A stretch of 64,000 bases of DNA. Source: Bacillota bacterium (lineage in GTDB: Bacteria; Bacillota; Clostridia; Acetivibrionales; DTU013). The stretch is from the NCBI GenBank assembly GCA_023412915.1, contig JAEZRE010000014.1, positions 156,164-220,163 on the forward strand, read 5' to 3'. Both the position numbers and the translations under genes were made by a program. Shown here piece by piece: positions 20,019-24,241 of this stretch. The notes under the pieces were generated by a model that worked only from the letters and a program-made list of their open reading frames with translations, was not told the DNA's origin and searched no databases. Position 1 is the first letter of the stretch. Each line of letters opens with the position of its first letter.

Positions 20019-20417
20019 TTAATTGAGCTTAAGTATTATGATATGCCTGTCCTGCCTGACAGATATCCTGCTGAATATCTTTTTAAGCGTTTCCCTGAGC
20101 TCTGGGTCAGGCTCGAGGAATTTCAAGCCATATTCGTATTCGTTCACTTCCGAGCCAACCATGTGGACAATGCAGCCTTGGAGGCAGTATTCGGAATCCC
20201 CGAGCTTCAAAACCGCTTCCAGTATAATGGAGTTGTCCGCCGGCAGCTTCAGCGAGGTAACGAACCTGAGCCCTCCGGGACTGATATCTAGTATCCTTAC
20301 CCTTGCGGCGTTCGAAAAAACACGCCTGTTTCCTATCCGCACGATACTGATAGTACCGAAAAGCGGATTCTCGGGTTTAATCCTGAAAAATTTTCTCGAA
20401 TATTTCTTAATATTCAT
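20019..20417 (-). CDS. stand-alone PilZ-domain protein (c-di-GMP receptor)
   Basis: Canonical RxxxR (RKFFR) and DxSxxG (DISPGG) motifs about 30 residues apart. 132 aa. Confidence 0.85.
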   Translation of the reverse strand: MNIKKYSRKFFRIKPENPLFGTISIVRIGNRRVFSNAARVRILDISPGGLRFVTSLKLPADNSIILEAVLKLGDSEYCLQGCIVHMVGSEVNEYEYGLKFLEPDPELRETLKKIFSRISVRQDRHIIILKLN

Positions 20418-20466
20418 TCAATCACCTGCAGCAGGCTTATTCGGGCTCGCCTGCAGCAGTTTTATA

Positions 20467-21300
20467 TTACCATATATTTACATTGCCTTCAATATATTTC
20501 TCCAACAATTTGTCATACTCGCGCCTGACCGCGGAAACAACAGGATTGGCTGAGGAATTATACGTTCTGCCGTCTATTGTACTTATAGGAAGGACTTTAA
20601 TGGAGGTCCCGGATAGAAAAGCTCCACTGATATCCTTCAACTCGTCGGCAGCGATAAATTGCTCCTTTACGTCGAAGCCGGCGTTGTTGCAGGCTTCAAA
20701 AACGTATTTACGCGTAATGCCTTTTAGCACCGCGTCTCCGGGCGCCGTATATATTGCGTTGTTTTTGACAAAGAAAGCATTCGATTTGCTGCCTTCGGTT
20801 ATCATGCCCCTGTCATTTACCAGCAGCACCTCGAAAAACCCGCCTTCGGCCAGCTTTTCATTGACGGCGTCCTTGTAGCTTTTGTTAAGAATTTTTGCAT
20901 TCGGATTTTTACGCTCTATCCTGATAAGTCCGGTTTTTACGCCCGCATCGGCTTCCTGCTCCGAAGGATAATAACTGCGGCTGAGGTATGCCACCTGCTG
21001 CTGACTGCCATCCGTATCGGATACGACTATCTTGACATTGCATACTTTCATATTGTTGGCCGACAACAGCTTCTTTATATTGTCCGCAAGCTGTTCACGG
21101 GTCATTTGCAGCGGGTTGCCTATAGCCTTGAAGGTACCCTTCATACGTTCATAATGATCTTCGAAAAAAAGCGGCACTCCATCTATTATACGAATCACCT
21201 CATAGGCTGACCTGCCCGAGGTACTGTCTGCATAAACCGGTTCCGACGCGCTTTTTACTTCGCCGTTGTAAATATAAAATTGTCCCGCGTTGTCTTCCAT
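20467..21300 (-). CDS. class IV (fold-type IV) PLP aminotransferase (branched-chain / D-amino-acid / ADC-lyase family)
   Basis: 277 aa with TEGSKSNAFFV and GITRKYV-type motifs typical of the family. Subfamily is not resolvable by eye. Confidence 0.85.
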   Translation of the reverse strand: MEDNAGQFYIYNGEVKSASEPVYADSTSGRSAYEVIRIIDGVPLFFEDHYERMKGTFKAIGNPLQMTREQLADNIKKLLSANNMKVCNVKIVVSDTDGSQQQVAYLSRSYYPSEQEADAGVKTGLIRIERKNPNAKILNKSYKDAVNEKLAEGGFFEVLLVNDRGMITEGSKSNAFFVKNNAIYTAPGDAVLKGITRKYVFEACNNAGFDVKEQFIAADELKDISGAFLSGTSIKVLPISTIDGRTYNSSANPVVSAVRREYDKLLEKYIEGNVNIW

Positions 21301-21333
21301 ACAGCAATCATCCCTTTGCTATTTATTCACTCG

Positions 21334-21362
21334 ATTATACCAGTTTAGCAGCTATTGTTCAA
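21334..21362 (-). promoter_or_regulatory. sigma-A promoter of the class IV aminotransferase gene
   Basis: Minus strand reads TTGAAC, 17-nt spacer, TGG-TATAAT (extended -10). Confidence 0.6.
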
Positions 21363-21399
21363 ATTGGCATGATTTAATAAAACCAAAGCAATGTGGGTC

Positions 21400-22491
21400 T
21401 CAGTATAAAGCCTTGATATCCTTCCGGTATTTTGCGATATCCTTCGAATTTTTCTTCTCGGCCATCCTTATGCTTTGATTGTGCTTGCTTTCGATGAAGC
21501 GCAGCTCCTTTTTCAGCTTTCTATAGCTCTCGAGGCGTACTGCAGGCAGCAGACCGCTCCTTACCGCAGCCAGCACAGCGCAGCCGGGTTCGTTTTCGTG
21601 ACTGCAATCCCTGAACCGGCATGAACCTCCGAGGCTCTCAACATCCTCGAAGGCACCTTGGAGGCCGCTATCGCTTTCCCAAAGCTGAAGCTCACGCATA
21701 CCGGGCGTGTCGATAATCATCCCTGCGTCCGGCAGCCTTACAAGATTCCGGTAGGTAGTGGTATGCCTGCCCCTGGAATCGTCCTCCCTGATTTCTCCCG
21801 TATCCATGATGGTTTCACCCGCAAGCAGGTTCGTCAGAGTCGATTTGCCGACTCCCGACGATCCGAGTATTGCGACTGTGCTGCCTACGCCAAGATACCG
21901 GCGCAACGCATCGGTCCCCTCGCCTGTTACCGCGCTTGCGGCAACTATGGGAACACCGAACGTTATCGCTTCGACTTCCCTGATTTTTTCCTCCGCGTCC
22001 TCGCTCAGATCCTTCTTGCTCAATACTATCACAGGCGCGGCGCCGCTTTCCCAGGCCATCGTAAGATACCTTTCCAGGCGTCGCAGGTTGAAATCCCTGT
22101 TGAGTGAATTTACTATAAAAACGTAATCAAAGTTTGCCGCAACTATCTGTTCCTGAACGACTGCGCCTGCAACCTTCCTTGAAAACCTGCTTTTCCTCGG
22201 CAGCAGCGCATGTATTACAGCACGGCCTTCCCGGGGCATCAGTTCCGCCGCCACCCAGTCGCCCACCGTCGGGTACGAATCGTAACCTGACGCCAGATGC
22301 CTGAATCTTCCCGAGACCTCTCCATGGATCTCCCCGGATTCGGAAATAAGCTTATACGAGCCTTTTTGCTCTTGAAGGACCCTGGCAGGCCTTTGCCCTT
22401 CTCCGCTTACTCCCGCGAATGCCTCCGCCCAGTAGTCGTTCCAGCCGTATTCATCCAGATTAATTGTTATTTCGCTTAATTTATCGTTCAT
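21400..22491 (-). CDS. rsgA: ribosome small-subunit-dependent GTPase A
   Basis: G1 motif GSSGVGKSTLTNLL, DTPGMRE, and C-terminal zinc knuckle CRFRDCSHENEPGCAV. Confidence 0.93.
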   Translation of the reverse strand: MNDKLSEITINLDEYGWNDYWAEAFAGVSGEGQRPARVLQEQKGSYKLISESGEIHGEVSGRFRHLASGYDSYPTVGDWVAAELMPREGRAVIHALLPRKSRFSRKVAGAVVQEQIVAANFDYVFIVNSLNRDFNLRRLERYLTMAWESGAAPVIVLSKKDLSEDAEEKIREVEAITFGVPIVAASAVTGEGTDALRRYLGVGSTVAILGSSGVGKSTLTNLLAGETIMDTGEIREDDSRGRHTTTYRNLVRLPDAGMIIDTPGMRELQLWESDSGLQGAFEDVESLGGSCRFRDCSHENEPGCAVLAAVRSGLLPAVRLESYRKLKKELRFIESKHNQSIRMAEKKNSKDIAKYRKDIKALY

Positions 22492-22529: not shown

Positions 22530-22700
22530 TTTCTTTGCCGGCTTTTACCGGCTATACTGCCTTAGCAGACTTTGCCGCTTTACTAATTGCCGGCTATACT
22601 GGCTACACCAGCTACACCAGTTACACCAGCTTTGCTGACATAACCGACTTAACGTGCTTTGCCGGCTTCTCCGGCCTTCCTGCTTTGTCTGCTGTCCGCT
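22530..22700. repeat. intergenic cluster of CTTTGCCGG(C)-core short repeats plus 3 x 9-bp ctacaccag tandem
   Basis: ctttgccggc at 22533 and 22657, ctttgccgc at 22570, aattgccggc at 22585. ctacaccag/ctacaccag/ttacaccag at 22603-22629. Confidence 0.6.
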
Positions 22701-22716
22701 CCAATCAACGCCGGTC

Positions 22717-23001
22717 TCAGTCCAACGCCAGAAGTACCCTTCTGGTATTGAGTACCTTGCGTATGCTGTCTTCCGACAGGTGATACATGTCCATCAGTTC
22801 CTGCACGCTGGCGCCTTCTTCATAAGCCCGACAGATATCGGTGTTTCTGGCCCTTATCATCAGCCTTGTGCCGTTAACGGCGCCCCAACCGGCCCTGTTG
22901 TTTTCCTGCCTCGGTATATAAAGCAGCTCGCCCTGTACATAATTCTGCAGCTGCTCCAGCAATGTTTTGGGTAGTACGTCCTTTCCATTGATATATTTCA
23001 T
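22717..23001 (-). CDS. small HTH protein, Mor/CD3324-like putative transcriptional regulator
   Basis: 94 aa. MKYINGKDVLPKTLLEQLQNYVQGELLYIPRQ... with a C-terminal HTH-like ASVQELMDMYHLSEDSIRKVL. Family assignment is from memory of similar clostridial proteins. RBS GGGAGG. Confidence 0.6.
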   Translation of the reverse strand: MKYINGKDVLPKTLLEQLQNYVQGELLYIPRQENNRAGWGAVNGTRLMIRARNTDICRAYEEGASVQELMDMYHLSEDSIRKVLNTRRVLLALD

Positions 23002-23041
23002 ATATGCCTCCCGATTTAACTAAGTAAACAATTCATTGCAA

Positions 23042-23078
23042 CAAAAAACTCCACGAGGCAAGCAACCTTCGTGGAGTT
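23042..23078 (-). terminator. intrinsic terminator located 41 nt upstream of the Mor-like gene ATG
   Basis: Minus strand reads aactccacgaagg-ttgcttg-cctcgtggagtt followed by TTTTTT (11-12 bp stem with one bulge). Confidence 0.75.
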
Positions 23079-23340
23079 CATATGGGCATAAAAAAAGCAC
23101 GATAACCGCTACCATGCCATTTTGTCCATTACATTCATTTTTGGTCAAAGGTTATTTCCTGTTAGGTCTGCCGATGAATACGAATATAAACCCGTTAACA
23201 CAGGTCATAGCGATAAAAAAACCCTCGCGGTATCCATCAGCCTATATTCAGTTATACGACTTCCACCTCAACAACCAATGCAAAATTATAAACCGTCACA
23301 AAAACAACTCCTTTCGCCAAAATTGAGTATTACATATTTT

Positions 23341-23370
23341 ATTATAGAACAGTTAACTTCTTACAGTCAA
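23341..23370 (-). promoter_or_regulatory. sigma-A promoter firing towards the Mor-like gene (start of a ~330-nt leader or ~290-nt sRNA)
   Basis: Minus strand reads TTGACT (23370-23365), 18-nt spacer, TATAAT (23346-23341). Confidence 0.6.
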
Positions 23371-23518
23371 GTACCGAATTAGCAGAAAGAATTATTATAT
23401 TAATTCTTTCCGCTATTCTGCTTAATGACTGAGTGATTATACTGCCGATCATTTCCTTAAGCTTTTTGAAATCTCAGACGCTGCGCTCGAGGTCTGCATG
23501 TTTGTATTTCGTGGGGCT

Positions 23519-24241
23519 TCATGGCTGCGTGATTACGCGGCCTACCAGTTCCTCAAGCTCATTGAAATCCCTGACTCTGCGCTCGAGCTCGGTGTGTTTG
23601 CCGTAACGGTCGAGGCATATCGTGTACATCCCCAGCTCTGCGGGCTTGACGTAGTCGTTGATATAATCGTCGCCTACGAAGATGACCTGTTCGGGCTCGA
23701 CTCCGGCCAGTTGCAGCGCCTTGCCGTAAATAGCGGGATGCGGCTTCACAACGCCTTCCTCGACCGACGTCACGACAAATTCGAATCGGTCTTCAATCCC
23801 GGTCAGTTCGAGCAGTTCCTGTATGCCTCCCATCACCATGAAGTTTGAAACGACGCCCAGTTTGAGGAGTTTGCCCAGTTTCGGAAGAACGGCCCGAACA
23901 TCCTCCCGCAGGTAACATACGGATTTGTAATTCTTCCAATAATTATCCCGAAGCCTTTCCGCGGTGGCTTCCATCCTTCCGTAACCAAGCTCCGGCAGGC
24001 TTAATTCGACGAGTTTAAGAAAGCGAAGTTTCATTTCATAGTCGGCGAACTCGGGCAGCTGAGCTGCAAGCTCCTGCCTGGATAGCATATAATACCGAAA
24101 AAACGTATCGAAGTCCTCCCAGAGTTCCTCGACGCCGGAGCCTTCGAAGGCCCAGGCGGCGTAATCCCTCCGGGTTGGCAGTACGTGCAGGTCTACAAGG
24201 GTTTCCATACAGTCGAAAAATATATATTTGAAAATACTCAT
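23519..24241 (-). CDS. HAD-superfamily hydrolase
   Basis: Motif I IFFDCMETLVD (nucleophile Asp; second position is not Asp, as in dehalogenase-like members). C-terminal FVGDDYINDY (motif IV). Confidence 0.85.
   Translation of the reverse strand: MSIFKYIFFDCMETLVDLHVLPTRRDYAAWAFEGSGVEELWEDFDTFFRYYMLSRQELAAQLPEFADYEMKLRFLKLVELSLPELGYGRMEATAERLRDNYWKNYKSVCYLREDVRAVLPKLGKLLKLGVVSNFMVMGGIQELLELTGIEDRFEFVVTSVEEGVVKPHPAIYGKALQLAGVEPEQVIFVGDDYINDYVKPAELGMYTICLDRYGKHTELERRVRDFNELEELVGRVITQP

Follow-up and report, generated by a model that had tools for sequence, protein, structure and literature searches.

A conserved RNA leader upstream of CD3324-family regulator genes in Clostridia and Paenibacillus, and its candidate role in ribosome-dependent transcription attenuation

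What occupies the long gap in front of a small regulator gene? In the 64,000-nucleotide (nt) stretch of Bacillota DNA analysed here, which we call the window, 517 nt separate the stop of a HAD-type hydrolase gene (23519) from the ATG (23001) of a gene encoding a CD3324-family helix-turn-helix protein. An earlier note on this DNA had seen in the gap a promoter, then a long structured leader, then a terminator ahead of a ribosome-binding site. We find that the gap contains an RNA leader that is real, strongly conserved and, it appears, previously undescribed. We put at about one half the probability that this leader, which is approximately 330 nt long and cis-acting, controls transcription of the regulator by ribosome-dependent attenuation. 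All leader coordinates given below refer to the minus strand of the window.

The leader is preceded by a sigma-70-type promoter, TTGACT-18-TATAAT (23370–23341), that matches the consensus at 11 of 12 positions and is the top site in a 2-kb scan; transcription would start near 23334. In an alignment of orthologous leaders (n = 17) TATAAT is invariant and TTGAC(T/G)G is conserved, which bears out the near-consensus minus-strand promoter that the earlier note had placed at this position. A 26-nt palindrome with a central TATA, GAAAGAAT-N10-ATTCTTTC (23410–23385), stops 14 nt short of the -35 box on its upstream side. It is the only perfect copy within the window, and its half-sites and 10-nt spacing are kept in 59 of 106 related loci across Clostridia and Paenibacillus, with one copy per locus. 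Being upstream of the promoter, it is not transcribed from it. The constant half-sites and spacing, the single copy per locus and the position upstream of the promoter fit a DNA operator, possibly one for a dimeric DNA-binding protein, with the regulator itself as a candidate.

Two terminator-like hairpins lie in tandem at the other end of the leader. The upstream one, T1 (23118–23090), was found by a terminator scan and consists of GGCAUGGUAG-CGG-UUAUCGUGCU followed by U7, with 10 pairs and a 3-nt loop. After a further 12 nt comes the GC-rich hairpin T2 (23078–23043), AACTCCACGAAGG/CCTCGTGGAGTT followed by U6, which ends 41 nt before the regulator ATG; it was missed by the simple terminator scan owing to a bulge in its stem, and is present in the minimum free energy (MFE) fold at -23.6 kcal/mol. 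As judged from sequence and fold, each combines a stable stem-loop with a U tract on the transcribed strand, as intrinsic terminators do. The earlier note was right that T2 exists between the leader and the ribosome-binding site, and mistaken in taking it as the sole terminator, because the more conserved T1 lies upstream of it. It was also right about the regulator's ribosome-binding site, GGGAGG (23012–23007), which together with the gene spans 22717–23012, and it had overlooked T1, the palindrome and an element complementary to a Shine–Dalgarno (SD) site that is described below. A promoter scan found no promoter-like site between T2 and the regulator ATG, and the regulator must therefore be transcribed by read-through of T1 and T2. 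Two weak promoter-like sites (9/12) occur at or before T1, neither of them conserved; a putative internal promoter within T1 (TGGACA-18-TATCGT, 9/12) was discarded because its -35 part is not conserved. A terminator between a leader open reading frame (ORF) and a gene, with no promoter following the last terminator, is the arrangement expected of an attenuator.

We compared the locus with its relatives by running a profile of the regulator against genomes, one for each species. This gave 80 loci, 16 in uncultured Clostridia (Hungateiclostridiaceae-like and unclassified Bacillota metagenome-assembled genomes) and 64 mostly in Paenibacillus. The window's own locus recurs as an exact copy on a 619-kb metagenome scaffold. 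Gene order is kept in the Clostridia group (tautomerase, HAD, gap, regulator, in some cases RsgA, class IV aminotransferase, PilZ), with the aminotransferase and PilZ genes following the regulator in nearly all loci of this type and RsgA in only some. Outside the closest relatives, HAD proteins are 48–66% identical and PilZ proteins 36–63%. The gap itself aligns at 68–93% identity over approximately 370 nt in this group, and its elements come in a fixed order: the palindrome, TTGAC(T/G)G...TATAAT, GAAAGGAG and a start codon, a short ORF ending in UAACUGAAUA, a long hairpin, GGAAUAACCUUU and T1. Orthologous regulators at 16 genome loci and 17 metagenome loci are preceded by the layout from promoter to T1. 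When a metagenome collection was instead searched with the T1 sequence, 19 loci were returned, 17 of which have a CD3324-type gene within the next 90–410 nt. The other two are one AT-rich contig recovered from two samples (L092 and L099) and represent a decayed locus. There, a full leader with small ORF, hairpin, T1 and T2 stands directly before a truncated 76-amino-acid ORF, which matches only the N-terminal domain of RsgA, and no CD3324 gene is present. A phage origin for the element was considered and dropped, as the only matches to the T1 pattern in the viral collection are ordinary gene-end terminators.

In Paenibacillus the leader is shorter and stands in another neighbourhood, in which the regulator is followed by genes for a GGACT protein, a response regulator and a GGDEF protein. 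It consists of an SD site and a small ORF ending in AACUGAAUA, a pyrimidine-rich element, and a form of T1, GGCACGAU-loop-AUCGUG followed by U8, in which the G-U pairs of the Clostridia hairpin have become Watson–Crick pairs. Because the leader is present in this different setting, its link to the regulator is old and reflects more than shared synteny. PilZ in Clostridia and GGDEF in Paenibacillus mean that each neighbourhood holds a gene related to cyclic di-GMP. In the Paenibacillus loci (L085, 5400–6000; L017–L080) the non-coding DNA ahead of the regulator also extends over approximately 1 kb and contains two tandem units. The first has a palindrome, a promoter, an ORF of 10–11 codons (for example MITKPEVVSA) whose stop lies in the loop of a covarying hairpin, and a terminator; the second has a promoter, a second small ORF, the element complementary to the SD site, and T1. 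A third small ORF overlaps the SD site and start codon of the regulator.

The leader RNA is predicted to be unusually structured. Its 299-nt fold has a z-score of -4.45, and none of 200 shuffled sequences was as stable. This stability, together with a layout kept upstream of orthologous regulators whose flanking proteins are only 48–66% identical, places the leader beyond chance. Its largest feature is a long irregular hairpin, GCUGAUGGAUAC ... GUAUUCAUCGGC with a variable apical hairpin (23241–23170), the base of which starts 10 nt after the stop codon of the leader ORF. When the 25 distinct Clostridia-type leaders were folded individually, the hairpin was predicted in all of them, starting 8–10 nt after the stop codon, with arms that differ by lineage (GCUGAUGGAUAC/GUAUUCAUCGGC; GCUGAGGGAUGUA/UGCAUUCGUUCAGC; GGAAAAUG/CAUUUUCC; GGACAAAUAUAU/GAUAUCUUUUGUC). 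A covariance model built on the segment from the stop motif to T1 has a single match in the window (23090–23254, 121 bits) and matches every Clostridia-type locus at one site per locus (69–144 bits). In the alignment to this model, 84% of cells are paired, as against 36–50% when the partners are slid; 14 pairs are changed on both sides (5–10 in the slid controls), and the covariation score is 0.19 (0.05–0.07 in the slid controls). The hairpin is thus conserved in shape and not in sequence. The length of its apical part varies, and it is wholly missing in Paenibacillus.

Upstream of the hairpin lies the leader ORF (23299–23252), 15 codons and TAA from a GTG start with the predicted peptide MTVYNFALVVEVEVV, preceded at 8 nt by an SD site, GAAAGGAG (23308–23315), that is present in all lineages. 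In 93 of 107 sequences (63 distinct) an SD site is followed, at a spacing of mostly 8–10 nt, by a start codon and a frame that stays open for 11–28 codons. The leader frame is open in all 63 distinct sequences; the other two frames are free of stops in only 4 and 19 of the 63. In one Paenibacillus group the ORF has 18, 19, 20, 21 or 23 codons with an identical C-terminus, and insertions and deletions in this group have therefore come in whole codons. A short ORF with a ribosome-binding site that is maintained as an ORF is a hallmark of leader-peptide attenuators, and the locus has one. The peptide sequence itself is not conserved and differs widely between lineages, and no residue is consistently enriched in the leader peptides across lineages. 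Attenuation by an amino acid, valine or another branched-chain one as the downstream class IV aminotransferase might suggest, was accordingly rejected for want of a consistent codon enrichment. Both of the tiny ORFs listed in the earlier note are present, and their fates differ: the one starting at GTG 23299 is maintained in every lineage examined, and the one starting at ATG 23208 is not conserved. This second ATG is missing in the three closest relatives (L001–L003), and its segment is the apical hairpin of the covarying stem; the small membrane peptide proposed for it is thus unsupported.

Near the end of the ORF there is a constraint on the RNA. An SD-like GAGGUG (23264–23269) lies within the ORF such that GAGGU ends exactly 10 nt before the stop codon, and the same arrangement of GAGGT, 10 nt and stop is found in 45 of the 63 distinct ORFs. 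At this motif the Glu codon is GAG in 45 of 45 cases, as against 15 GAA and 3 GAG elsewhere in the same ORFs, and the third base of the Val codon varies. The constraint therefore acts on the RNA sequence; the recurrent Glu-Val, three residues and stop read as a by-product of the GAGGU motif. In one locus with a 4-nt deletion (L088) the GAGGU-to-stop spacing is kept by using the TGA of the stop motif in place of TAA. This stop motif, UAACUGAAUA (23245–23254), carries the stop codon of the leader ORF, has stops in two or three frames, and is conserved in both Clostridia and Paenibacillus, with TAA, TGA or TAG used depending on the lineage. On the decayed AT-rich contig, GAGGUG is retained out of frame with the small ORF. 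A pairing of GAGGU with the downstream element, proposed by RNAalifold, was set aside because the duplex is no better than those of shuffled sequences.

Between the long hairpin and T1 is a pyrimidine-rich anti-SD element, AAUAACCUUUGACCAAAA (23156–23139), within which AUAACCUU is invariant. It is complementary both to the SD region of the leader ORF and to the upper part of T1. In the MFE fold of the window's leader the SD site is paired with the downstream CCUUU of this element, and SD/anti-SD pairing recurs in the MFE folds of four sequence families (AAAGG..UUUUGG/CCAAAA..CCUUU, GGUGAA/UUCACC, GGGAGAUGG/CCAUCCCCC and GACG/CGUC). In Paenibacillus the duplex reaches -12 to -15 kcal/mol, which few shuffles equal, and the element is always 38–50 nt before T1. 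The alternative pairing of the element with T1 (UGGU ... GGUUAU) is predicted at -7.5 to -11.9 kcal/mol in Clostridia-type leaders, compared with about -6 in shuffles, and in locus L090 it is the MFE structure.

The two terminators differ in how they have been kept. T1 is invariant apart from 1–4 loop bases in all Clostridia-type leaders. A role for T1 as a DNA operator was rejected, as the spacing of its half-sites varies from 2 to 10 nt. T2 is found in 17 of the 25 distinct Clostridia-type leaders with compensatory changes (CCACGAAGG/CCUCGUGG, CCGCCAAGG/CCUGGCGG, CCAUAAAGG/CUUUAUGG) and is missing in one Clostridia-type subclade and in Paenibacillus. The sequence just after the U tract of T1 (AUGCCCAU, 23082–23089) is complementary to T1 at its 5' flank and in the lower part of its 5' arm (AAAUGGCAU, 23112–23122). 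Similar complementarity recurs as AAAUAGCAU/AUGUCUAUUU in L010, AAUGGG/CCCAUU in L016 and GGAAUAA/UUAUUCC in Paenibacillus; in read-through transcripts, such a helix would replace the lower half of T1.

All of the elements are therefore present and conserved: the ORF is coding-competent, the long hairpin covaries, and the pyrimidine-rich element is complementary to both the SD site and T1. The earlier note had proposed aligning the upstream regions of orthologous regulators and testing them for covariation. The layout proves to be conserved, the long hairpin covaries and T2 has compensatory changes, which, with no later promoter, gives comparative support to that note's central idea of a cis-acting attenuation unit. 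Among the options it had listed, leader-peptide attenuation fits best, the GTG 23299 ORF and a strong SD site being found in every lineage.

Translation of the ORF, termination at T1 and T2, the operation of the switch and the kind of signal that it reads are all inferred from these features. The near-consensus promoter, probably modulated through the palindrome, would drive a transcript that starts with the 15-codon leader ORF. A terminating ribosome would be held between GAGGU, 10 nt before the stop, and the stable hairpin 10 nt after it; the strong SD site, the GAGGU spacing, the multi-frame stop motif and the downstream hairpin all argue for such a hold at the stop codon. With no ribosome on the small ORF, the element AAUAACCUUUGACCAAAA would pair with the SD site, T1 and then T2 would form, and transcription would stop before the regulator. 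With a ribosome on the SD site or ORF, or held at the stop, the freed element could pair with the upper part of T1 (UGGU ... GGUUAU) and weaken it, allowing read-through. What the leader reports would then be whether a ribosome occupies the small ORF, a matter of translation status and not of a specific amino acid.

Several observations weigh against ribosome-dependent attenuation. T1 forms in every fold of the window's own leader sequence, whether the RNA is free or has a ribosome masked on the SD site, the late codons or the stop, and forcing the candidate antiterminator there costs 8 kcal/mol with the SD site masked and 13 kcal/mol with it free. Masking of the T1 arms, masking of ribosome footprints and duplex searches against all upstream sequence revealed no partner for the T1 arms that is common to all lineages. 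In two Paenibacillus groups the complementarity between the element and T1 is no better than in shuffles. A pairing that excludes T1 in a ribosome-dependent way is thus only a modelled candidate. The attenuator model also leaves read-through of T2 unexplained. The body of the leader ORF has no excess of variation at third codon positions, and the support for its translation is therefore frame maintenance only. Finally, the T1 stem (GGCAYGRU/AUCGUG) is conserved in sequence far beyond the needs of a plain terminator, with almost no covariation and a loop of variable length. In the Paenibacillus chitinolyticus group (L027, L033, L039 and L047), the T1 hairpin GGCACGATACCTATCGTG is followed by GTATATCTTTCC with no U tract, approximately 150 nt upstream of the regulator. 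Retention of T1 without its U tract suggests a role for the hairpin beyond intrinsic termination, and this group together with the over-conserved stem hints at a trans-acting factor.

Such a factor is the basis of one alternative, in which a trans-acting protein or small ligand recognises T1 and the single-stranded motifs (UAACUGAAUA and GGAAUAACC) and modulates termination, with the small ORF as an accessory; the leader would then resemble a riboswitch or be an antiterminator that depends on a protein. A stem kept across two bacterial classes is unusual for a plain terminator, and this explanation would accommodate it, as it would the lineage that keeps the hairpin without a U tract and the failure to find a robust RNA-only antiterminator. 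However, no Rfam family matches the leader; the long hairpin is conserved in shape only, has a variable apex and is absent in Paenibacillus, which is unlike a ligand-binding pocket; and the conserved SD site, start codon, open frame and constant GAGGU-to-stop distance are left unexplained. We consider control by such a factor or ligand doubtful. The modelled dominance of T1 in all states could also mean that there is no conditional control at all, and that the terminators simply damp a strong promoter to a constant low level of regulator while the small ORF and the hairpin lend stability to the RNA's 5' end. Ribosome-bound SD elements do protect mRNA 5' ends in Bacillus, which speaks for this explanation, but the SD/anti-SD and element–T1 complementarities and the GAGGU-to-stop spacing seem too elaborate for constant damping, and we regard it as quite improbable.

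The unit from promoter to T1 or T2 could instead be a gene of its own that makes an abundant RNA of approximately 245–290 nt, with the regulator co-transcribed at a low level through terminator leakage. Such an RNA might be dual-function, encoding a tiny peptide and pairing with the SD sites of other mRNAs through an exposed anti-SD-like seed, AACCUUU or UCACCU. In favour of this are the strong promoter and the two terminators that the unit has to itself, the likeness of its conserved single-stranded pyrimidine motif to the seeds with which some small RNAs target SD sites, the predicted formation of T1 in every state, and, in Paenibacillus, a second and similar unit of small ORF and terminator that has its own promoter and no obvious switch. 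An independent small-RNA gene would be expected to occur independently of its neighbour, however, and this one does not: in 17 of the 19 loci found from the T1 motif it is directly upstream of, and co-oriented with, a CD3324-family gene, and the remaining two are the one decayed locus. In addition, nothing resembling a separate promoter for the regulator lies downstream of T2, the folds pair the pyrimidine motif with the SD site of the same RNA, and the peptide sequence is not conserved. An independent gene, dual-function or not, is therefore unlikely in our judgement, and ribosome-dependent attenuation remains the reading that we favour.

Returning to the gene that the leader precedes, the regulator (23001–22717, minus strand) encodes a 94-amino-acid CD3324-family helix-turn-helix protein. 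It matches NCBIfam model NF040785 with 109 bits (cut-off 65) over model positions 1–82 of 82, which places it in the CD3324 family. Its score against Pfam Mor (PF08765), 23.9 bits, is below the gathering cut-off of 24.9, and the alignment is limited to the C-terminal helix-turn-helix region, so that the protein does not qualify as a Mor member. A structure model is confident only for the C-terminal LuxR/GerE-like helix-turn-helix domain, which is of a generic type, and a fold search returned no significant structural neighbour. Literature searches for CD3324, for its locus tags and for leaders or attenuators brought up nothing specific. Downstream of the regulator on the same strand (20019–22491) are genes for an RsgA-type GTPase, a class IV aminotransferase and a PilZ-domain protein. 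The 225-nt spacer between the regulator and rsgA contains short degenerate tandem repeats (22534–22700; GCTACACCA ×3.3 and TTTACCGGCT ×2). Low-complexity repeat tracts also flank the regulator in distant relatives, with approximately 340 nt between T2 and the regulator in L095 and approximately 200 nt at the Paenibacillus locus L085 (4930–5140).

With regard to coding capacity, the earlier note had seen no convincing coding sequence in the gap, and we agree: the ORFs called mechanically there have no Pfam match, and none is kept open in relatives. Those rejected on these grounds are a 42-amino-acid sense ORF spanning T1 and T2 and antisense ORFs of 96–98 and 86 amino acids, the longer of which is already broken in the closest relatives. 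A 36-amino-acid ORF (23342–23452, minus strand), likewise not kept open in relatives, is a remnant of the C-terminus of a decayed duplicate of the HAD gene end. The last 85 or so nt of the HAD gene are tandemly duplicated directly downstream, and the copy has decayed (23420–23600; 96-nt unit, 1.9 copies and 77% matches by Tandem Repeats Finder).

The CD3324 family comprises widespread small helix-turn-helix proteins of spore-forming Firmicutes that have no known function. Across two bacterial classes, genes of this family are preceded by an elaborate leader with an operator-like palindrome, a promoter, a mini-ORF, a covarying hairpin, an anti-SD element and a sequence-invariant terminator, and this leader is a well-delimited candidate for curators of RNA families. 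If the attenuator reading is true, it would add a new ribosome-sensing design to the known attenuators and provide a handle on the timing of these regulators. More speculatively, and on balance improbably, the leader could represent an undescribed class of translation-status sensor common to Clostridia and Paenibacillaceae. The ORF would then serve only to hold a ribosome at its stop, with GAGGU 10 nt upstream and a hairpin 8–10 nt downstream, and its own SD site would compete with T1 for the anti-SD element, such that ribosome availability, or the speed of termination and recycling, sets the expression of orphan small transcription factors.

How does this leader compare with known RNA elements? 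Searching the whole window against Rfam 15 at gathering score returned two tRNAs only. Within 22900–23560, at E values up to 10, the best hit was a plant microRNA model at 23 bits (cut-off 100), and the 16 related loci gave nothing. The earlier note had matched the leader to no riboswitch class by eye, and the scan is likewise empty; its riboswitch option finds no counterpart among the known classes in Rfam. Like riboswitches and other cis-regulatory leaders in Rfam, the element is a long, structured 5' leader in which a conserved terminator immediately precedes the controlled gene. Unlike riboswitches, it lacks an Rfam match and has a conserved leader ORF, and its large hairpin keeps only its shape and can be dispensed with, as Paenibacillus shows.

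Dual-function small RNAs such as Staphylococcus RNAIII and Bacillus SR1 encode a small peptide and also regulate by base pairing. The leader shares with them a strong promoter, a highly structured RNA, a terminator end, a tiny ORF and pyrimidine motifs complementary to SD sites; it departs from them in its strict cis linkage to one gene family and in a pyrimidine motif that pairs with its own SD site. Recoding cassettes, as in dnaX -1 and prfB +1 frameshifting, combine an upstream SD-like stimulator with a downstream hairpin, and the leader has the same succession of an SD-like motif, about 10 nt, a decoding site, about 8–10 nt and a stable hairpin. Here, in contrast, a stop codon occupies the decoding site, and the other frames have stops as well. 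Because no frame allows an extended product, the arrangement would hold a ribosome rather than recode.

The closest known kind is the ribosome-mediated leader-peptide transcription attenuator, as in the enterobacterial trp, his and ilv leaders and in Listeria. Ribosome-mediated attenuators of this type include the Listeria ilv leader Rli60 (PMC5864092); leaders of antibiotic-responsive genes, Listeria hflXr among them, also act as attenuators (PMC6310831). Unlike the trp, his and ilv leaders, the present one has neither a run of regulatory codons nor a consistent amino-acid bias, and the proposed sensing segment is not a set of internal codons but the ORF's own SD site together with the SD-like motif before the stop. 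It further differs from known attenuators in having two tandem terminators with an antiterminator that is only a candidate, and in regulating a small transcription factor instead of a biosynthetic or resistance gene. The stop-to-T1 distance also differs from that of known attenuators, at 136 nt in the window and 50–70 nt in Paenibacillus, which is too far for a ribosome at the stop to block T1 directly. What the leader has in common with this group is the succession of promoter, short ORF, structured leader and intrinsic terminator before the regulated gene, and the proposal that the position of a ribosome on the leader ORF chooses between alternative RNA pairings.

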